A stretch of 64,000 bases of DNA, taken from the NCBI GenBank assembly GCA_964647855.1, contig CAZYJW010000002.1:4720-68719 (forward strand). The letters are read 5' to 3'. Positions 7,307-63,950 of the stretch are shown one piece after another (position 1 is the first letter of the stretch; each line of letters opens with the position of its first letter). The position numbers were made by a program, and so were the translations under genes. The DNA is from Candidatus Micrarchaeota archaeon (GTDB lineage Archaea > Micrarchaeota > Micrarchaeia > Anstonellales > Bilamarchaeaceae). The notes under the pieces were generated by a model. That model did no database searches and was not told the origin of the DNA. It saw only the letters and a program-made list of their open reading frames with translations.

Positions 7307-7543
7307 TCACTGGATTTTCAGCGCTTCCTTGAGTTTTTTCACATTGAAACCGATTATGACTGTGCCGTCGATATCCGTCACGGGCACTGCGAAGCCGCCG
7401 CTTTTGCTCCGGACCTCCTCTGCGAACGCCGGGTTCCGCTGCGCGTTCCTTTCCTCGAACTCCAAGCCGCTTTTCCGGAGGAAGTCCTCGACCTTGACGC
7501 ACCACGGGCATTCGTCCTTGGTGTAAACGATGACCCTTGCCAT
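7307..7543 (-). CDS. small glutaredoxin-like protein (CPWC)
   Basis: The track ORF is 7307-7669. The internal ATG at 7543 gives MARVIVYTKDECPWC..., collinear with the Grx-like protein at 1287-1520. The upstream extension looks non-coding. Confidence 0.8.
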   Translation of the reverse strand: MARVIVYTKDECPWCVKVEDFLRKSGLEFEERNAQRNPAFAEEVRSKSGGFAVPVTDIDGTVIIGFNVKKLKEALKIQ

Positions 7544-7595
7544 GTGGCTGTTTTCGCCAATAGATATTAATAAATCACGGGCGATTAGAGCGCTC

Positions 7596-8543
7596 ATGAA
7601 GCCCCTCAAGAAGATATGGATGGACGGGAAATTCGTGAACTGGAAGGACGCGAAGGTCCACGTCCTCACGCACGGCCTGCATTACGCCACCGCCATATTC
7701 GAGGGCATGCGCTGCTACGACACGCCCTCCGGCCCGGCGGTCTTCCGCATGAGGGACCATTACAAGAGGTTTTTCCGGGGGGCGAAGTGCTACCAGTTCG
7801 AGATAAACTACACCCTCGAGGAGCTCATGGCGGCGACGCGCGAGCTCATCTGCAGAAACGGAGTGAGGGCATGCTACATCCGGCCGATATGCTATGTGGG
7901 CTATTCCGAGATTGGCATAAGCACGCTGGGGAAGCCCTTCCAGCTCTCGATAATCCCGGTGGACTTCTCCAAATACTTCGGCAAGAAGGCGGAGAGGGGC
8001 ATCCGCTGCATGGTGTCGAGCTGGAGGAGGATAAGCGCAAACGTCCTTTCCCCGCACGTGAAGGCCACGGCCAACTACCTCAATTCGGCGCTCGCCAAGC
8101 GCGAGGCCATGAACGCCGGCTACGACGAGGCCATCATGCTCTCCCACGACGGCCTCGTTTCCGAGGGCACCGGAGAGAACATATTCATCGTCGAGAACGG
8201 GGAGCTCGTCACGCCGCCGCTGCATGACGGCGTGCTCAAGGGCGTCACCAGGCAGACGGTGATGGAGCTCGCGAACGAGCTGGACATACCTGTTCGCGAA
8301 AGGTCGATCCTGCGCGACGAGGTTTACAACGCGGACGAGATGTTCCTCTGCGGCACGGCCGCCGAGATAACGCCGGTGCTCAGCGTTGACCAGAGGATTG
8401 TCGGGAAGGAGCCGGGGCCGGTTACTAAGGCCGTGCGCGAGGCCTATTTCAACGTTGTCCAGGGAAGGGACGAGAGATACCTCAAATGGCTCGACTTCGT
8501 GAAGGCCAAGCCCGGCCGGTGCGACGATACCGATATTTTATAA
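7596..8543 (+). CDS. ilvE: branched-chain amino acid aminotransferase (PLP fold type IV)
   Basis: Starts MKPLKKIWMDGKFVNW. Contains AIFEGMRCY, KATANYLNS (PLP lysine region) and SEGTGENIF motifs. ATG 7596 is chosen over the 7530 extension. Confidence 0.9.
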   Translation: MKPLKKIWMDGKFVNWKDAKVHVLTHGLHYATAIFEGMRCYDTPSGPAVFRMRDHYKRFFRGAKCYQFEINYTLEELMAATRELICRNGVRACYIRPICYVGYSEIGISTLGKPFQLSIIPVDFSKYFGKKAERGIRCMVSSWRRISANVLSPHVKATANYLNSALAKREAMNAGYDEAIMLSHDGLVSEGTGENIFIVENGELVTPPLHDGVLKGVTRQTVMELANELDIPVRERSILRDEVYNADEMFLCGTAAEITPVLSVDQRIVGKEPGPVTKAVREAYFNVVQGRDERYLKWLDFVKAKPGRCDDTDIL

Positions 8544-9425: not shown

Positions 9426-9469
9426 TGCAGCATCCCGGGCCTGCCCGGTAGCACCAGGATGGTTTTTAT

Positions 9470-10618
9470 TTGCCATTGCACATGGCAATTCCGAACACAT
9501 GGCGCTTTGGGGCTGATTTGATGGCGGAAAAGCAACTGGTCCGAAAAGGCGGGCTGCAGGATGAGTTGGGCGGCCTTTCTCCGATGCAGGAGGAGCGGCT
9601 CAAGCCGCTCGGCCCGCCCCAGGCGGGCACTGGACGCGTTCCGGAAACCGCGCCGCCTTCCCCGATGCCGGCCGGCCAATCCCGCGAGAAGGAGCGCCGC
9701 GGGGACAGGGTTCCAGATAGCGGCACTGCCAGGGCAGGGCAGCAGGGCGCGGTGGCGGACACGGCAGCATCCCGAGGCGGAAGCCGCGCTCCGCGCCTGC
9801 AGGGCGCGGACAACCAAGGTTTCGCCGCAACCCTCGAGATAAGGGAAATCCAGCGCGAGGCGACCCGCAGGTGGCTCGCCGGCGTTATACCCCTTGCGCC
9901 CACGGATGAAATGCCGGACCTGCATATCGAGGAACCGTCCTATTTTTCCAGGATTGAAAATGAATGCGGGTTCTCGCCCACTGGCTTTTATCAATTCGGC
10001 ACCGACAATGTCCATGTAACGAACGCCCCCCAGAGCGGGGCGGATAGGGCGGTTTTGCTGGTCCACGAGGACCTGCACTTCTTTTCCCGGGACGGATTGC
10101 GCATTTTCTTCGAAAGGGACGACGGGAACATTGCGCGCCCCGGATACATCGCATGGATGAACGAGGGCATGACCGAGCTTTTCGCCCAGACCATAGTAAG
10201 GGAGAACGGGATGGCCCCCGGAAGTGTCGGCTATTCCTATGAAACCCTCACCGCCCACTATCTGCTCATGGCGGTGTCGACCGCGGCGGGGAGCGAACAA
10301 ATCGGGCGCGAGGCAATGTTGACCGCTTATATGACGGGCGATTTCTCCCGTGTCCGGGCTCTTGCCGACGCGACGCTTGGCGAAGGGTCTTTCGAGAGGT
10401 TGCTCGGCATGCAAACCGGCGCAGAGGCACTCGGCTTCATACGCTCAAGGATTCCCGAGGCCGACCAGGCGGGGATGATCCGCGCGCCCGGAACCGGAAG
10501 GTCGCTTCCCTTGGCTTCATGGCTTGACAATCCGATAGCCAAGCGGGCGAGGATGCAGATAGCCTTGAGCGAGGTTTCCGGAAGGCCGATGCCCACCCTC
10601 GGCAGGACATTTGACTGA
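9470..10618 (+). CDS. uncharacterised zincin-like protein (HExxH ... NEGMTE), family member 1 of 3
   Basis: HEDLH motif followed ~30 aa later by WMNEGMTELFAQ. The C-terminal half is collinear with the ORFs at 61480-62601 and 62598-63950 (YETL.., MTGDFSRVRAL, GEGSFERL, GAEALGFI, W..NPI). The start is uncertain: TTG 9470, with ATGs at 9482 and 9518. Confidence 0.75.
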   Translation: MPLHMAIPNTWRFGADLMAEKQLVRKGGLQDELGGLSPMQEERLKPLGPPQAGTGRVPETAPPSPMPAGQSREKERRGDRVPDSGTARAGQQGAVADTAASRGGSRAPRLQGADNQGFAATLEIREIQREATRRWLAGVIPLAPTDEMPDLHIEEPSYFSRIENECGFSPTGFYQFGTDNVHVTNAPQSGADRAVLLVHEDLHFFSRDGLRIFFERDDGNIARPGYIAWMNEGMTELFAQTIVRENGMAPGSVGYSYETLTAHYLLMAVSTAAGSEQIGREAMLTAYMTGDFSRVRALADATLGEGSFERLLGMQTGAEALGFIRSRIPEADQAGMIRAPGTGRSLPLASWLDNPIAKRARMQIALSEVSGRPMPTLGRTFD

Positions 10619-10651
10619 TGCATGGGGATGGCTGGTGCGCCCATCACCGGT

Positions 10652-10705
10652 TTTAAAAATCCTGCGCCCTAACCTAATAAACCAGATTCGGGGTCATGGG
10701 CTAAC
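10652..10705. repeat. left direct repeat (attL-like): displaced tRNA promoter plus first 16 nt of tRNA
   Basis: Gap-free alignment with 13515-13568 gives 41/54 identities. The ends TTTAAAAATCCT and GGGGTCATGGGCTAAC are identical. Confidence 0.8.
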
Positions 10706-10809
10706 AAGTCGCTTGTCTCATAATCTTATGACGTAAAACTGCTTTTAAACACATCGTTACGGCATACCAGAACGCCCGGATTAAAGGCCCGCCCCTAGTT
10801 CGTCGGAGG

Positions 10810-11415
10810 ATGAAGCATCAGCCAGATTTGAACGGAACCGATAATGACCCGAAGCACACCAATCAAGAACATCAGGATGGTCAGCGCGGCCATAACGCGG
10901 GTCAGGTTGATAATTTCCTCGGTCTGTTTCTAAAATCCTACGGCGCATATACTTTTTGCTTGGTTTGGGGTTTTCCTGAACATCTACCGCGCCCGACTAT
11001 TCGCGAGTTGCTACAGCACGACGATGATGAGTCGTCGGGATGTGGGACGTTGTGCGGAAAGAACAAGTCAAGCACAGAGAAGTATCTCGGTATAAGGGCG
11101 AGATACATTCGGAAGCACGTGCTCAGGCAGACAGGGAAGCGGATTCGCTTCACCGCCTCACATGTTGGGCGGTTTCTCGGTATCCATGAGAGGCGATGTG
11201 CCTATTGTGGCACAACCGAGGGGCGATTTGTCATCGAGCACGTCGTTCCGATGAGTAGAGGAGGGGAGACGAAGTTCCATAACCTCGTCCTGGCTTGCCA
11301 GAAATGCAATGATGACAAGCTGGACATGACCCTGGGCGAGTGGAAACATGCACCCGCCAAGGTCGAAAGGCGGCTGGTGAAGAACCAGACGACTATGGCT
11401 GACTTCGTCCAGTGA
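10810..11415 (+). CDS. HNH endonuclease
   Basis: C-terminal CAYCG...EHVVPMSRGG...HNLVLACQKCNDDK HNH/zinc-finger motif. The N-terminal ~40 aa look non-coding, so the start is uncertain. Confidence 0.7.
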   Translation: MKHQPDLNGTDNDPKHTNQEHQDGQRGHNAGQVDNFLGLFLKSYGAYTFCLVWGFPEHLPRPTIRELLQHDDDESSGCGTLCGKNKSSTEKYLGIRARYIRKHVLRQTGKRIRFTASHVGRFLGIHERRCAYCGTTEGRFVIEHVVPMSRGGETKFHNLVLACQKCNDDKLDMTLGEWKHAPAKVERRLVKNQTTMADFVQ

Positions 11416-11455
11416 TAAACCCTCTTTCCCCTTATTTTTATCATCGAAGTGGGGG

Positions 11456-12523
11456 ATGGGTATGCTCGTCACAGAAATAGACAAGGATACGGAACGGCTT
11501 CTCAATGCGATGCTTCTTGTCAGCATGCGCCATGATAAGAAATGGGAAGGTCCAACCGTGCATGATGCTGTAGTTTGCCACGCTTGCGATGCATTAAGAC
11601 AGCATGGATTCCGAGTGGTGCAAGAATATCCTGTCGCATACAAATCCCACAAAAAGGATGATGAGAAAGCGGGCAGGTTGGATATATTTGGTCAGAAGGA
11701 CGGTAAAACGATAGCTTTGGAGGTGGATACTGGTAATAAAATCCGCATAAAGACCATTCGCAAGCTCATTATATCCAAAGCCGACAATTGCGTAATAATC
11801 CATGGAGGGGGATTTCTGGAATCGGATATCCGCGACCATGCGATGAACTATGCAAGGAAAACGCAGGGACGAGTGAGATACAATAAAGCTCTTGAACTGG
11901 TTTCCGAGATACGTTTCAGGAGACGCTATAAGGTAATTGAGGAGCAATTCCAAAAAGCCTTGAAGTCCTTTCCTGAATGGAATTCATTCACGGGTCAGAT
12001 ATTCATCATTGATGTGTCTGCAAGGAGGAACTTCAAGGTAACTTTGGAAAAAGAGGATAATACGATATACTGTTTCTTAGAGCGGATAGAGATAACTGAG
12101 CAGATGGTCTCCCCGCAAACATTTGGAAGGCAAGAACCCGTAGAGATAGGTCGGGCCGAATATTTCGCTGAATGGAATACGTGGGCAGTCCTTATGGATT
12201 CGGGATATTATTATGTTAAACAGGGTAGAAAGATAGGCGAACCTTTGCACAAATTGATAGCACGCAAGTTCATATATCGGAGGTATCCCTTGTTTTTCAA
12301 AAAATATTATTATAGGCAGGAATTGGACGACCTGGATGTTCATCATATCGACCGAAACAAGACCAACAATCAACCAGATAACCTTGTGATTATCAGCAGA
12401 CAAGAGCACCGTGTCAAAATACAGCATCAAAACATTATTGAGAATGACCGAGCGAGCGGCATCATGGAACTAAAACGAGTGGGTATCCATGCGCCCCATA
12501 TCAAGGAATTAGAAGCTCTTTGA
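11456..12523 (+). CDS. HNH endonuclease with N-terminal putative PD-(D/E)xK-like domain
   Basis: C-terminal DVHHIDRNKTNNQPDNLVIISRQEHRVK (HNH_3-like). The N-terminal GRLDIF...IALEVDTGNK pattern resembles a restriction-endonuclease-fold core (weak). Confidence 0.7.
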   Translation: MGMLVTEIDKDTERLLNAMLLVSMRHDKKWEGPTVHDAVVCHACDALRQHGFRVVQEYPVAYKSHKKDDEKAGRLDIFGQKDGKTIALEVDTGNKIRIKTIRKLIISKADNCVIIHGGGFLESDIRDHAMNYARKTQGRVRYNKALELVSEIRFRRRYKVIEEQFQKALKSFPEWNSFTGQIFIIDVSARRNFKVTLEKEDNTIYCFLERIEITEQMVSPQTFGRQEPVEIGRAEYFAEWNTWAVLMDSGYYYVKQGRKIGEPLHKLIARKFIYRRYPLFFKKYYYRQELDDLDVHHIDRNKTNNQPDNLVIISRQEHRVKIQHQNIIENDRASGIMELKRVGIHAPHIKELEAL

Positions 12524-12715
12524 GCATACCCCAACAATTCAATGGTGTGGTTTCCCACACTTAGCAGCCAGGAGGGTATTTATCCCGCCCCTTCTGCTTC
12601 TCCATGTCTAAAGCAGGTTACGCCCGCCCATTCATCCCCCAAGACGAATAGGAAGGCAGACCTGCGGATAAAACCTTCCCGATATGTCTAAAATCCTTCA
12701 GAAAGATGCAACAGC

Positions 12716-13207
12716 ATGAAAACAACAATCATCGTTATACTTATTCTAGGAATATTCTCATTCGGCTGCGCACAAAAACATGAGATGGATTTACAAAATA
12801 CTTCTGAAAACTTTCCGCAAGAGACGGTTAAATCTCCAATAAATTGTCTTGATATATTAGAGAACACGAGAGTTAGTGCTACCATTTCCAGAGGAACAAA
12901 TCCACCGCAAGTTTTCCTTGATTACATGACACCACGAACAAAGAACGGATTCACAAATGGCGGACATAATTATAGTGATATGAATAACGGATGCAGAGAA
13001 GCCAGGGAAACGGGTGAAAACATAAATCATCTTTACTGTAATTTTTATTTTCAGGTGAGAAGAACCAATGTCAGCAAGAATGGGATTCTTGGAGAGGAAG
13101 AATGCTATCAAGTTTTGATTAAGGAATTGAATTTTGTTTCTAAAGCTACTCCTAATGAAGTTTATGACGCCTATGAAGCAATCAACATAACCTGCACACC
13201 GTGTTAG
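12716..13207 (+). CDS. putative secreted lipoprotein, Cys-rich, unknown function
   Basis: Signal peptide MKTTIIVILILGIFSFGC with a lipobox-like FSFGC. Six further Cys residues and AT-rich codon usage. Confidence 0.6.
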   Translation: MKTTIIVILILGIFSFGCAQKHEMDLQNTSENFPQETVKSPINCLDILENTRVSATISRGTNPPQVFLDYMTPRTKNGFTNGGHNYSDMNNGCREARETGENINHLYCNFYFQVRRTNVSKNGILGEEECYQVLIKELNFVSKATPNEVYDAYEAINITCTPC

Positions 13208-13514
13208 TCTAAATAATAGGAACATGCCCGGCCTTCATCGCCCAGAGGCTCCGGCACGGCCTTCAATAGCCCAGCAAAACCAACTTGGGGATTGGATGCC
13301 TGCTGGGCCAGAAGCATCACCCGCCATCATCGCATAAGCTCCGGTGGTAGCTGATGATTGCCTTCCGGTTCGCTTCAGGCATCTTTACTTTCTCAGGCGT
13401 CGCCTTCTTGCCCCTCACCTTCACCGATACTTCCGATAGCCGTCTTATGGCGGCTTCCACGTCGTTCCCGCTTGCCATTTTGTCATCTCCAAGACAGCGG
13501 CGCTACGTTCGGAC

Positions 13515-13523
13515 TTTAAAAAT
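13515..13523 (+). promoter_or_regulatory. TATA-box-like element upstream of tRNA
   Basis: TTTAAAAAT centred ~34 nt upstream of tRNA nt 1. Confidence 0.6.
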
Positions 13524-13568
13524 CCTTCGTGCTAACCTCATGACAATAGTCTGGGGTCATGGGCTAAC
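13515..13568. repeat. right direct repeat (attR-like): active tRNA promoter plus tRNA nt 1-16
   Basis: See 10652-10705. This copy is contiguous with the rest of the tRNA. Confidence 0.8.
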
Positions 13569-13710
13569 CTGGTAGACTGGAGCCTTCGGGTGAGCCTTTT
13601 TGGCATATGTCCTTCTAAGGGCAAAAACCCTCGGGAAAAAGCCCTGAGGAAAACATGTCAAAGCGGTTCAGCAAAAGGCTTTGATCTGAGTTCAAATCTC
13701 AGTGACCCCA
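13553..13710 (+). tRNA. intron-containing tRNA, probably tRNA-Pro(CGG), with ~85-nt intron at 37/38
   Basis: Acceptor GGGGTCA/TGACCCC. T-arm CTGAG-TTCAAAT-CTCAG. Anticodon stem GAGCC/GGCTT with loop TTCGGG^...^A. Proposed intron is 13591-13675. The mature length would be 73 nt. The D-stem pairs poorly, so an Arg(UCG) alternative fold cannot be fully excluded. Confidence 0.75.
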
Positions 13711-13732
13711 ATAATCTTCCCAGAGTGGTCCC

Positions 13733-35264: not shown

Positions 35265-35440
35265 GGGCTCATAGCTCAGCTAGACGCGAAGCATCTCCGC
35301 ATTTTGCATGACGCTTCGCATCCTGCAATGGTAGAGCGACGGACTTTTAATTTTGGAAAGGCGATAACCAAAAAGTTTTGGGGCGCTTTCTCCCAAAAGG
35401 CGCGATCCGCAGGTCGGGGGTTCAAATCCCCCTGAGCCCG
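35265..35440 (+). tRNA. tRNA-Lys(UUU) with two introns (D-loop and canonical 37/38)
   Basis: Acceptor GGGCTCA/TGAGCCC. D-stem GCTC...GAGC, interrupted by a ~48-nt insert (35281-35328) that contains the GCGAAGC/GCTTCGC hairpin. Anticodon arm ACGGA-CTTTTA^...^A-TCCGC with a 55-nt intron (35350-35404). T-arm GGGGG-TTCAAAT-CCCCC. Mature length is 73 nt. Confidence 0.85.
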
Positions 35441-35575
35441 TCTTTTCCTTATGTCTTCTGAGGGTAAAAGACGCCAAAACTTCCTGAGGCTACACTCCGT
35501 CTTTTCCTTATGTCTTCTGAGGGTAAAAGACGCCAAAACTTCCTGAGGCTACACTCCGTCTTTTCCTTATGTCTT
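35440..35575. repeat. 59-bp tandem repeat, 2 full copies plus an 18-nt partial copy
   Basis: The unit GTCTTTTCCTTATGTCTTCTGAGGGTAAAAGACGCCAAAACTTCCTGAGGCTACACTCC starts at 35440, 35499 and 35558 (partial). The two full copies are identical. Confidence 0.9.
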
Positions 35576-61479: not shown

Positions 61480-62601
61480 TCATCTGAAGCGTTCTATCGC
61501 CATCTGTGCATAGCATTGTGCCATAATCGGGCTTGATTCCCATCCGGCGTAATCAATGCCCGCCGCGGATGCCTTCCCCATTATGAACGAGAAGGCGTCC
61601 GCGCCGGAGCGACAGGCCATAAGCCCGTCGAATGAGCCGGCGCCAAGCCGCACATCCAGAAGGGTTCGGACCTGCGTGAAGTCGCCGGAAAGATAGGCCC
61701 GCCTGAGTGGCTCCTCCCCGACCACCTGCTGCATCGCAAAGCAGACCGAGGTTTCGAATGTATAGGCGACGCCGCTTGGAACGCGCCCGTGGCTCCTTGC
61801 AAGCCCCTGCGCCAGCAACTCGGTCATGCCTTCGTGGACGGCCCACCCCTCCTCCCGTAAATGCGGGTTCCCATCGCCATCCCGCCATCTGGTGGCACCT
61901 CCGCCGCCAAGGTATGCGGCGTAGTGGAGCTGTTCGTGGGCCATCATCAGATAGGCATTATCCCCCTGATAGAGGCTAACGAAAACGTGATTGGTTCCTG
62001 CCTCGTACATGCCGCCCGTCGGATTTCCGGAAGCGGCGGAGACGGTCGCGAACCATCCGCCAGTCTCGAGCGTCGCCACGGGAGGCGAGCGCGAGAATCT
62101 TGAGAACACGGTCTCGCCAAGGAAGTCCCGGGTCATCCACCCGCCCGAGACATCCCGGCTGATGGCCCCCACATCCTCTTGGTGGGAATCCCTATATTCG
62201 GCTGCGCCCGGCACCTCGGGAGCTGCAGAAAGCCCGGGCACGGTATCGAAACCGCGGCGCATGAATCCCTCGGAATCGGCGCGCGCCTCATCAGTGGTGG
62301 TGAAAACGCGCGCGGGCTGCTCGAAGCCCCGCGCCGCCTCGCTGAAAAGGTCTTCGGCAGACATCCGGCGCGCAGGGCCCTGGCGAAGAGCCCCGGCAAG
62401 GAAGGATCTCACCCGGTCAGACTGCGCGCCAAGCGAGGCGGTTGCCTGCATGGCCGCTGCAGTGGAAGCGTCAAGCCTCTGCTCCGCGTCAGGCAGCCTT
62501 ACTGGAATCGCCACCTCGACCCTTCTCCGCTGCTCGAGCACCAGTCCGCCCGTTGCCAGCTCTGCATCCTCAACGCTCCGCTCCATCTTCTTTCCGCTCA
62601 T
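61480..62601 (-). CDS. uncharacterised zincin-like protein (HExxH ... HEGMTE), family member 2 of 3
   Basis: The start MSGKKMERSVEDAELATGG is chosen by collinearity with member 3 (MSGTRALERHVEEAEHATGQ). HEQLH, then VHEGMTELLAQ. ATGA overlap with the upstream paralog. Confidence 0.75.
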   Translation of the reverse strand: MSGKKMERSVEDAELATGGLVLEQRRRVEVAIPVRLPDAEQRLDASTAAAMQATASLGAQSDRVRSFLAGALRQGPARRMSAEDLFSEAARGFEQPARVFTTTDEARADSEGFMRRGFDTVPGLSAAPEVPGAAEYRDSHQEDVGAISRDVSGGWMTRDFLGETVFSRFSRSPPVATLETGGWFATVSAASGNPTGGMYEAGTNHVFVSLYQGDNAYLMMAHEQLHYAAYLGGGGATRWRDGDGNPHLREEGWAVHEGMTELLAQGLARSHGRVPSGVAYTFETSVCFAMQQVVGEEPLRRAYLSGDFTQVRTLLDVRLGAGSFDGLMACRSGADAFSFIMGKASAAGIDYAGWESSPIMAQCYAQMAIERFR

Positions 62602-63950
62602 TGTCTCTCCTCCGCAGCCGCTATTGCACGGAAGCATCCGGAGAGGACGGGGTTTCGCTCCCATTGCGTGAAATCGATTCCTGAGGCAGCCATCCTGCCC
62701 ATCAGGAACGAAAGCGCCTCTGCCCCGCGCCGCATCGACGCAATACGGTCGAAAGCCCCCTCGCCCAGGCTGGAATCAAGCCTCCGGCGGACCTCGGTGA
62801 AATCACCGGTGAGGTACGCCGTGCGAAGCGTTTCCTCTCCGGCTATCTGCTGGATGTAGAAGCCGGTAGCTGTCTCGTACCGATAAGAAACGTATGTGGG
62901 CTCATGGCCATGCGTCCGGGCAAGCTGCTGCGCATGGAGCTCGGTGAGCCCTTCGTGGAGCCATTGGATGTAACCGCAGAACGCGGGGTTCCCATCATCG
63001 CCCCTCCAGCGGATTTCGTGGCCGCCGCCGAGCCAAGATGCGTAATGGAGCTGTTCGTGGGCGTTTCTGACGTATCTGTTGGCCCCGTGCGGGTCCGATA
63101 GCTCGGCCGGGCCGGGCTCGTCGCTTATCACGGTGATGTGGTTCGTGCCATTATAGTATGTGCCGGATATCCCGTACCCGTATCCCAGTGCATCCGCCTC
63201 CCCCCGGGCTTCGCTCGCTCCGCCCATGGCATCGAAAAAGTCACCCGACTCCCCAGTGGTGACCGGAGGCGAGCGCCGGAACCGCGCGTAAATGGTGCTG
63301 CCGAGATAGTCTTCGGAAAGCCATTCGGTAGAGACCTCCCGGCTGATTTCTTCGTTCGTAGATACGACCGCATCATGGATGGCATCGCGTATCATGAAGA
63401 CCGGGGATGCAAAGAACCGGAAAATGCCTGCAAAGAAATCGCCGATTGCGCTGAAAACCGCGGTTATGCCGTCCCACAGCCCCTCCCAGAAGCCCCGCTC
63501 TTCGGCCGGCCGGGGCGGGCTTTGCCTCTGCGGGGGGGCGGTTTGCCGCGCCTCATGGAGAAGCTCGGCGGAATGCCCGCGGGCTTCTGCTTCTGAGCGG
63601 TAGAAGCGGGCTGGGGCATCATGGCCGCGCTCGGCATCGCGGAAGGCGTCTGCCGTTGAACGGCGCACCATGGAAGCGAACATTCGCATGATGGAATCGC
63701 GGCCTTCGGGCAGTACCTGCGCCGTCTGGCGCTCGGCCTGCTCCAAAATGCGCCTTGCGGCATCCCCCTGCGCCCCGATAATGCGCATGGATTCCATTGC
63801 AAGCGAGATTCTTTGCTCCAGAGAGCGCGCCTCGGCATCGGTCCTTCGTGGAATCGTTCCGCTCACGCGTTCCCGCTGCTGCTCCAGCACCTGCCCCGTG
63901 GCATGTTCGGCTTCCTCAACATGGCGCTCGAGCGCCCGCGTTCCAGACAT
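62598..63950 (-). CDS. uncharacterised zincin-like protein (HExxH ... HEGLTE), family member 3 of 3
   Basis: HEQLHYASWLGGG, then WLHEGLTELHAQ. Has an extra hydrophobic/aromatic segment, GFWEGLWDGITAVFSAIGDFFAGIFRFFASPVF. Confidence 0.75.
   Translation of the reverse strand: MSGTRALERHVEEAEHATGQVLEQQRERVSGTIPRRTDAEARSLEQRISLAMESMRIIGAQGDAARRILEQAERQTAQVLPEGRDSIMRMFASMVRRSTADAFRDAERGHDAPARFYRSEAEARGHSAELLHEARQTAPPQRQSPPRPAEERGFWEGLWDGITAVFSAIGDFFAGIFRFFASPVFMIRDAIHDAVVSTNEEISREVSTEWLSEDYLGSTIYARFRRSPPVTTGESGDFFDAMGGASEARGEADALGYGYGISGTYYNGTNHITVISDEPGPAELSDPHGANRYVRNAHEQLHYASWLGGGHEIRWRGDDGNPAFCGYIQWLHEGLTELHAQQLARTHGHEPTYVSYRYETATGFYIQQIAGEETLRTAYLTGDFTEVRRRLDSSLGEGAFDRIASMRRGAEALSFLMGRMAASGIDFTQWERNPVLSGCFRAIAAAEERQ

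Follow-up and report, generated by a model that had tools for sequence, protein, structure and literature searches.

A small AT-rich gene islet inserted at the 5' end of a tRNA-Pro(CGG) gene in a Candidatus Micrarchaeota archaeon

The stretch of DNA analysed here (the window; 64,000 nt) comes from Candidatus Micrarchaeota archaeon (assembly GCA_964647855.1, contig CAZYJW010000002.1, positions 4,720-68,719, forward strand). It contains a small, AT-rich gene islet placed at the 5' end of a tRNA-Pro(CGG) gene, between two copies of a tRNA promoter and of the first 16 nt of the tRNA. This block is an insertion relative to every relative sampled. As for the route of entry, site-specific recombination seems the likeliest, because of the architecture of the repeats and the precedent of the pTN3 and TKV4 elements. 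Our leading explanation, held tentatively, is a recombinase-dependent element of the pTN3/TKV4 style, inserted at the tRNA gene and with its recombinase now deleted or acting in trans.

The insertion and its repeats

We first consider the repeat pair. An ungapped 54-nt match, identical at 41 positions, joins 10652-10705 to 13515-13568, and is the best such pair between 9 and 15 kb. The 40 dinucleotide shuffles gave 30-34 matches (mean 31.7, standard deviation 0.9), which places the direct repeat of the original prediction beyond the shuffled range. A repeat search resolves the pair into two parts with the same spacing of 2863 nt, namely 10652-10678 against 13515-13541 (85%) and 10690-10705 against 13553-13568 (16/16). 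The 16-mer occurs in only two places in the 64 kb, the stub and the start of the tRNA. The TTTAAAAA box sits 38 nt 5' of the tRNA, the usual position of the archaeal TATA element.

A simple local duplication is disfavoured, because the arms before the 16-nt core differ at 13 of 38 positions (25 matches, 34% divergence) while a stub without obvious function differs at 0 of 16. For a duplication in situ followed by equal drift, this combination has a p of about 0.001 by our own arithmetic.

In terms of the tRNA gene, neither default ARAGORN nor Rfam calls a tRNA at this site. With introns allowed, ARAGORN reports one at 13552-13711 with an 85-nt intron, labelled Leu(CAA) because the program misplaces the intron. 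At the canonical position 37/38 the intron leaves a 7-nt anticodon loop (UU-CGG-G-A) and a mature 73-nt class-I tRNA-Pro(CGG). This identity agrees with the intron-less 73-nt orthologue at L012 (L-numbers denote related loci compared with the window) and with ARAGORN Pro(CGG) calls for L005 and L006.

Across more than 30 relatives the exons hardly change, and the intron is variable. The acceptor stem covaries among orthologues (GGGGTCA/TGACCCC, GGGGTCG/CGACCCC, GGGACCA/TGGTCCC), the T stem shows a compensatory change (A-U vs U-A) and the fold z-score is -5.8. A textbook bulge-helix-bulge could not be drawn by hand at the 37/38 intron, for which a relaxed motif is assumed; several introns are carried by Micrarchaeota tRNAs. 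The tRNA predicted at 13553-13710 is genuine, and is now specified as Pro(CGG) with an 85-nt intron. The right repeat copy, as had been claimed, consists of a TATA-like element plus nt 1-16 of this intron-containing gene.

We compared 38 related loci. In the loci of the LipA matches given below and in 23 metagenome loci found with the tRNA 5' exon, the recurring gene order is histidine kinase - glutaredoxin - BCAT - (Ser/Thr kinase) - tRNA-Pro - orf66 - (orf115) - orf224 - LipA - E1alpha. The window LipA, 1.6 kb 3' of tRNA-Pro, has its best matches (58-68%) in metagenome-assembled genomes of Candidatus Micrarchaeota. None of the 38 loci has the nuclease genes HNH1 and HNH2, the lipoprotein gene or the block itself, and the ORF53 gene was not found in the relatives examined. 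The empty sites to be expected of an insertion were found in L016, L102, L001, L002, L008 and others, with BCAT and the tRNA lying within about 75 nt of each other in L001 and L002. A relative with the same block but without the left repeat was not seen; all 38 loci lack the block altogether. An extra copy of the tRNA 5' end is present in one other locus only, L106.

The block is fixed in the window's own population. Fifteen independent contigs from 13 Sequence Read Archive runs are 100% identical to the window, with 6 of the 15 spanning both junctions and the whole block.

A clear difference is seen in composition. The interval 10706-13514 (2,809 bp) has a GC content of 0.462, whereas the whole window has 0.605 and each flank 0.62-0.64, and its 2-kb windows are the top tetranucleotide outliers in the 64 kb (z 4-5.7). 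Both profiles bear out the predicted AT-rich shift. GC at third codon positions (GC3) is 0.61 for HNH1, 0.47 for HNH2, 0.33 for the lipoprotein and 0.69 for ORF53, with neighbouring genes at 0.81-0.85. Because GC3 values differ among its four genes, the block is a compositional mosaic rather than one uniform piece. Of the integrated element first proposed, the foreign composition stands and the single homogeneous piece does not. The arrival appears to be recent, since the block has kept its un-ameliorated composition and all its open reading frames (ORFs) are intact.

A second islet is found on L096, a contig of a different Micrarchaeota with a BCAT 67% identical to that of the window. Here the BCAT stop is followed by 46 nt, a promoter (cattataaaaaccctagcccctaacct..), a 15-nt stub (GGGGTCATGGGCTAA) and about 50 nt of islet end. 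Then come two small unrelated ORFs, a homologue of HNH2, a small ORF and an opposite-strand gene for a CAP-domain secreted protein, where the contig ends. The GC content of this islet is 0.44-0.47, against 0.56-0.62 in its flanks. The two insertion points coincide within 1 nt. Between window and L096 the stubs are identical at 15 of 15 positions, while the promoter before and the 30 nt after are at about 60%; the roughly 50 nt after the L096 stub are 79% identical to window 10689-10735.

Apart from tRNA DNA, only the HNH2 gene and the left end are shared. The two are diverged members of one islet family, at the same position in distant genomes and with different cargo. Their identical stubs reflect either selection on the stub or recent insertions in both, and recent, independent insertions are favoured because the composition is un-ameliorated.

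The two promoter copies have different affinities. In local alignments against tRNA-Pro upstream regions, the right-hand module scores 31 with L110, 27 with L106, 25 with L117 and 21 with L109 (null maximum 14), and for the left copy the similarities are to L101, L117, the L096 stub promoter and L116 (scores 15-20). Against the closest relatives, chosen by intron similarity of 0.79-0.83 (L102/L108, L113) or by protein identity (L016, L001), both copies score 6-10, the right-hand module 7-10, within the same null. From the right copy through the start of ORF53, the match to L106 is about 70% over some 140 nt (67% over 174 aligned columns), and L106 is a distant lineage (orf66 37%, LipA 60% identical). 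The motif GCTACGKTCGGA-N-TTTAAAAA..GCTAACC at the core of the right copy is found again in L110, L117 and L109.

The right-hand module acts like transferable DNA, since it is shared with distant lineages and has no match in the closest ones. Such behaviour would fit an islet that supplies the working promoter of the tRNA. The claim that an insertion at the tRNA 5' end now provides its promoter and 5' end holds for both insertion and promoter replacement. For the left copy, described at first as a displaced promoter plus stub, the stub is upheld (16/16); a native origin of the promoter is not, as neither copy is like those of the closest relatives.

Some other readings of the stub and its surroundings were rejected. 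A third, degenerate promoter and stub at 9426-9530, in the gap between the kinase and unk365 genes, would have meant tandem accretion; its L016 alignment, suggestive to the eye, scores 9 against a shuffle null of 8.1 and does not exceed shuffles. The stub has no complementarity to the downstream leader that would make it a split-tRNA or trans-splicing half, and a stub hairpin (nt 4-11 with YAUGAC) in the window and L096 is no better than in shuffles. The left islet end, taken as a decayed T-arm and 3' acceptor, is too weakly like the "minihelix" leaders of other lineages.

Table 1. Features of the islet and its borders in the window, and unoccupied sites in relatives
Feature	Position	Strand	Description
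Left promoter copy	10652-10689	+	tRNA-Pro-type archaeal promoter; TATA-like TTTAAAAA at 10652-10659, then ..CCCTAACCT..; now precedes the stub only
Stub	10690-10705	+	GGGGTCATGGGCTAAC, equal to tRNA-Pro nt 1-16 and identical to 13553-13568; putative attachment (att) core and crossover region
Conserved left islet end	10706-10760	+	ATGACGTA motif and TATA-like CTTTTAAAC; 79% over 48 nt to L096 9009-9055
HNH1	10810-11415	+	Small HNH nuclease, CxxC..H..N..CxxC
HNH2	11456-12523	+	Two-domain nuclease; gene callers start at 11462; predicted PD-(D/E)xK domain at residues ~10-136, HNH_3 at ~245-353
Lipobox-type secreted protein	12716-13207	+	Signal ..IFSFGC; GC 0.37, GC3 0.33, the most AT-rich gene; TATA-like TCTAAAATCCT at 12687-12697
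ORF53	13317-13478	-	Small, divergent from the right-hand promoter region; called in all contigs
Right promoter module	13495-13552	+	GCGCTACGTTCGGAC-TTTAAAAATCC, TATA at 13515-13522, then ..GCTAACCTCATGACA..
tRNA-Pro(CGG)	13553-13710	+	Exon 1 13553-13590, intron 13591-13675 (85 nt, 37/38), exon 2 13676-13710; CCA not encoded
unk365	9521-10618	+	365 aa, HEDLH (HExxH) motif; between kinase gene and left repeat, outside the AT-rich block
Empty site, L016	7992-8102		Kinase gene ends 7992; tRNA starts 8102
Empty site, L102	1193-1336		Kinase gene ends 1193; tRNA starts 1336
Empty site, L001	8283-8355		BCAT ends 8283; tRNA starts 8355

Nucleases and other cargo genes

Both HNH-motif nucleases of the original prediction are confirmed by family matches. 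HNH1 matches PF14279 (2e-12), PF01844 (1e-10) and the PHROG HNH endonucleases, with a weak sub-threshold match to NUMOD1 (E 0.1). Its true start may be the in-frame TTG at 11008, 3' of a TATA-like box at 10929-10939. As a defence system HNH1 was rejected: it matches only the HNH motif of PtuB-type models and the partner ATPase is absent.

The C-terminal ~110 residues of HNH2 are an HNH_3 domain (PF13392), which scores best with the PADLOC "HEase" model (1.8e-9). Its sole phage relatives are homing endonucleases of the T5 F-TflII type (35% over 76 aa, E 7e-4), and the same type of HNH_3 domain also ends many unrelated proteins of 500-770 aa. Full-length HNH2 has one homologue, the L096 protein P0002 (65% identity), among 5.8 billion clustered proteins and 1.8 billion representatives. 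The catalytic residues HH..N..H are invariant between the two.

The N-terminal ~135 residues form one family with stand-alone proteins of about 150 aa, in which H36, E57, G73, D76, E89 and D91 are invariant. An AlphaFold2 model built from the family alignment has a mean predicted local distance difference test score (pLDDT) of 79.8, a predicted TM-score of 0.72 and the topology H-H-E-E-E-H-E-H. Its best Foldseek matches are all PD-(D/E)xK enzymes, namely OkrAI (E 3e-4), AF1548, Cas4, Hjc, BstYI and EcoRV, with modest TM-scores of 0.3-0.5. OkrAI is an isoschizomer of BamHI, and at the sequence level the match to BamHI is sub-threshold (E 0.03). The PD-(D/E)xK domain that had been suspected here is borne out at fold level by model and structure search. 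The full-length model, made from two sequences, is unusable (pLDDT 42). Taken together, the structure prediction supports HNH2 as a BamHI/OkrAI-like PD-(D/E)xK domain joined through a middle region to an HNH domain of homing-endonuclease type.

The searches against viral and plasmid databases that had been proposed found no relatives in viral contigs, phage or plasmid records for full-length HNH2 or its N-terminal part, for HNH1 beyond its HNH motif, or for the lipoprotein. The latter is an ORFan, without a homologue in the 5.8 billion proteins, and its FGC signal is like those of the secreted proteins of relatives. ORF53 is likewise an ORFan for which no homologue was found at protein level; conservation with the distant L106 is recognisable over its first ~18 codons and the adjacent promoter.

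TCTAAAATCCT is common to the TATA-like boxes at 10929-10939 and 12687-12697 and is similar to the TTTAAAAATCCT found in either copy of the tRNA promoter. The 64 kb contain the 9-mer TAAAATCCT only once more.

Upstream of the islet, the GC-rich unk365 gene (GC3 0.73) has no Pfam match and no counterpart near tRNA-Pro in the 38 related loci. Paralogues at 61495-62235 and 62646-63179 (37% and 28% identity) place unk365, with its metalloprotease-like HEDLH motif, in a small family of this genome. The upstream neighbour, used as a synteny probe, gave nothing in the genome collection.

Possible routes of arrival

According to the favoured explanation, 10706-13552 would be a mobile gene islet of small size, inserted site-specifically into the first 16 bp of tRNA-Pro(CGG). 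The incoming DNA would have borne a tRNA-type promoter and tRNA nt 1-16 beside its attachment core. Crossover within the shared 16-bp core would then leave, on the left, the earlier promoter with a dead stub (10652-10705) and, on the right, a rebuilt and intact tRNA read from the islet promoter (13515-13552). The agent would most likely be a tyrosine recombinase, since deleted or trans-acting. A perfect short core within a tRNA, diverged arms and an intact gene paired with a dead stub are the signature of conservative site-specific recombination; recombination at the 16-bp core, and with it the type of enzyme, is what we infer. In line with a tRNA-integrated element, the locus is bounded by direct repeats into which the tRNA extends, keeps the tRNA whole at one end and has unoccupied counterparts in related genomes.

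Several observations weigh against this explanation, first of all the absence of a mobility enzyme. Neither Pfam nor PHROGs gives an integrase domain in any ORF of 8.5-15.3 kb, the interval scanned for recombinases out of the whole 64 kb. Six-frame inspection of 10640-13560 shows neither a split Int(N)/Int(C) nor, at either end, anything like the remains of a recombinase; an integrase inside the element, or split across its ends in SSV fashion, was not found. The original prediction had likewise recognised no integrase or recombinase. We found no integrase in that part of the L096 islet which the contig covers, between BCAT and the tRNA of relatives or in a 1.6-kb insert at L109, and the sole gene common to both related islets is a nuclease, not a recombinase.

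The remaining points against it concern the site. The reconstructed attP has no inverted core-type binding sites or arm repeats, and a search of viral contigs by protein and by att-like DNA patterns found no free or viral copy of an attP-like sequence. No empty-site or excision variant occurs among the 15 contigs of the window population, and the core has 16 bp vs 41-43 bp in pTN3. As neither promoter copy matches the closest relatives, the assignment of one as native and the other as imported is a putative one. Finally, the mosaic GC3 (0.33-0.69) means that the islet may have been assembled in several steps.

In terms of other known classes, terminal inverted repeats and a transposase, as expected of an insertion sequence or transposon, were not found in the block. 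A split integrase read across the core was rejected. The plus-strand frame through it (ORF 13354-13575, then 10706 onwards) is open for 71 codons upstream and has no family match. This frame runs for 14 codons before a stop in the window and for 34 in L096, and in L106 it is closed. Codon-position counts do not distinguish it from ORF53, which is read from the opposite strand. Within the frame (13538-13568 + 10706-10747; L096 9015-9120), window and L096 share GHGL[T/I][S/A][R/A]LS[H/Q][N/Q][L/F]MT, with conservative substitutions. An 11-codon stretch of this kind, very short as it is, would look like a decayed SSV-type integrase ORF that crosses its att site.

The closest known systems are pTN3 and TKV4 of Thermococcales, which use an SSV-family "suicidal" tyrosine integrase with the 5' half of tRNA-Leu as attB. 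The attB of pTN3-like integrases is the 5' half of a tRNA, and the rebuilt tRNA ends up apart from its original promoter (PMC8371274; PMC5495485). This targeting of the 5' half by pTN3/TKV4 is described as unique among archaeal integrases (PMC8371274; PMC5495485). The islet is like them in its insertion into the 5' part of a tRNA, in a direct repeat that includes tRNA 5' sequence and in an intact tRNA rebuilt on an element-borne promoter. It differs in having no integrase gene, whole or split, whereas the pTN3 attP of 41-43 bp lies inside the integrase frame. The islet also duplicates a dedicated tRNA-type promoter, while pTN3/TKV4 use the integrase promoter, and it is of 2.8 kb rather than ~18 kb, in a DPANN archaeon.

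A comparison can also be made with the integrase-less remnants known from tRNA genes ("gene capture", genomic islets). Common to both are the foreign composition, the tRNA border, att-like repeats, ORFans and nucleases as cargo, and a block that is fixed in its population. Such remnants usually lie at the tRNA 3' end with integrase fragments, whereas the islet stands at the 5' end without a trace of a recombinase. Its ORFs are all intact, and the related islet at the same site shares only the nuclease gene and an element end.

The disrupted tRNA genes of archaea offer a further likeness, in the break at nt 16 in the D-loop and in the 15/16 intron of the L004 orthologue. They differ from the window, where the tRNA is not split, the right copy is complete and the stub has no complementary splicing partner.

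Overall, the islet is a small integrase-less variant of a rare but known insertion style. To our knowledge, 5'-end tRNA insertion with an element-supplied promoter has so far been tied to one Thermococcales integrase family, and the mobile DNA of DPANN archaea is almost undescribed. The same promoter-supplying solution is seen here in another phylum, in a recombinase-less 2.8-kb element where the only conserved gene is a two-domain endonuclease. If the agent was a lost or trans-acting integrase, this would be an ordinary captured islet, mainly a marker of gene flow between high-GC and low-GC Micrarchaeota.

Among the alternatives, nuclease-driven homing survives best; a lost or trans-acting recombinase is slightly favoured over it, and we regard a homing-like cassette as possible but doubtful. 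HNH2 would cut a cassette-free tRNA-Pro near the junction of promoter and 5' exon, and repair would copy the cassette, with the conserved tRNA as right homology and the promoter plus 16 nt as left. Once the site is occupied, the cassette's own promoter and the break at nt 16 would protect either copy from being cut. HNH2 is indeed the one protein conserved between the two islets, with its single homologue in the 5.8 billion proteins, and the insertion point is the same in both, with presence/absence polymorphism (38 other loci are empty). Homing does not, however, make flanking direct repeats by itself, and the first duplication of promoter and stub would need another event. The left homology arm is very short (16 nt and a semi-conserved promoter), and the tRNA of an occupied genome keeps the 5' exon of an empty one, which leaves the avoidance of self-cleavage to a hypothetical site geometry.

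The properties of the enzyme would suit a homing role. The C-terminal domain of HNH2 scores best on homing-endonuclease models and is distant kin of F-TflII, whose gene lies in the tRNA gene cluster of T5; T4 SegB cuts a tRNA gene of a related phage (PMC2330249). The N-terminal fold is that of sequence-specific restriction enzymes (OkrAI, BstYI) with the acidic residues conserved, the catalytic HNH residues are invariant in both homologues, and HNH1 has its weak NUMOD1 match. The lack of a recombinase in the islet points the same way, and intact ORFs throughout are awkward for a decayed remnant. HNH nucleases are nevertheless frequent passengers of mobile DNA and defence islands. Only two islets are known, and DNA exchange between Micrarchaeota cells is undocumented.

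Free-standing homing genes of phages (T4 SegB; T5 F-TflI/II/IV) resemble the islet in a stand-alone HNH-type gene beside a tRNA, in presence/absence polymorphism and in the HNH_3/HEase type of the HNH2 C-terminal domain. They lack flanking repeats and a replacement promoter, whereas the islet stands in a cellular archaeal chromosome and HNH2 has an additional BamHI-like PD-(D/E)xK domain and a hypothetical cleavage specificity.

A bolder form of this alternative, which we consider unlikely, makes the islet a self-contained, tRNA-targeting homing cassette of a cellular archaeon, with HNH2 cutting the tRNA-Pro promoter/5'-exon junction and repair copying the cassette. The substitute promoter and tRNA nt 1-16 would then spare host and cassette, and repeated rounds would explain promoter swapping among distant lineages, stubs and minihelix scars. 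If HNH2 were the engine of mobility, the locus would represent homing without an intron, on a chromosome and directed at a tRNA gene, and would point to a concrete way in which tRNA promoters, 5' stubs and perhaps introns and split genes arise in small archaeal genomes.

Less probable still is an old, vertically inherited variable region, in which an ancestral partial duplication of the tRNA 5' end was followed by gene gain and loss through ordinary recombination; block-free relatives would have lost the block by recombination between the repeats. HNH2 (65%) and BCAT (67%) are similarly diverged between window and L096, but the GC and GC3 of the block are un-ameliorated in both lineages despite the implied age. 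The interval 5' of tRNA-Pro is variable in many relatives, and a tRNA-derived stub or minihelix in five other lineages suggests that partial 5'-end duplications recur. A non-functional stub should decay, yet 16/16 and 15/15 positions are kept beside sequence at ~60%. The mosaic composition inside the block would suit a long history of this kind; on the other hand, the promoter modules match distant, not close, lineages, and the closest relatives have no trace of the block.

An assembly or chimera artefact, conceivable in a metagenome with a 54-nt repeat that can mis-join contigs, is refuted by the 15 identical contigs from 13 runs, 6 of which span both junctions, and can be set aside.

Other observations around tRNA genes

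A tRNA-derived "minihelix" of ~50-60 nt lies between promoter and tRNA-Pro in five lineages: L016 (8043-8101), L106 (~11131-11183, stored strand -), L114, L118 and L097. Its 5' strand is like tRNA nt 1-8/13; a hairpin (TTGAAC..GTTCAA) and a complementary 3' strand follow. Covariation is seen in the stem (GGGGTCG/CGACCCC in L097, GGGCCA/TGGCCC in L016), and fold z-scores are -1.6 to -4.6. Possible explanations are the decay of a tRNA copy, a scar left by earlier insertions and a role as processing signal.

The 1.6-kb insert at L109 (365-1931, oriented) separates the tRNA-Pro promoter from a conserved membrane-protein gene, and is absent in L117. The encoded proteins, a 398-aa CxxC protein and a 132-aa protein on the minus strand, have no family match, and there is no stub.

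Some variation is also present within the tRNA-Pro gene. The T-stem alleles CTGAG/CTCAG and CTGTG/CACAG (window 13689-13705) are out of step with intron similarity: the window has the former and its closest relatives the latter. This pattern suggests recombination or gene conversion inside the tRNA gene. At L004 (~7391-7620) the orthologue has a second intron in the D-loop at 15/16, the position that in the window marks the border between stub and islet. Within the 37/38 intron, L103 and L097 have an additional insert of ~58 nt made of two hairpins (..CATTGTTCG..CGAACAATAGG), and the T-loop of L011 also contains an insert; small mobile inserts within tRNA introns are a possible reading.

Finally, a second disrupted tRNA is found in the window at 35265-35440. 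It is probably Lys(UUU), and both its D-loop and position 37/38 hold an intron. At its 3' end starts a perfect 59-nt tandem repeat of 2.3 copies (35438-35575), and this region is slightly AT-richer than average.

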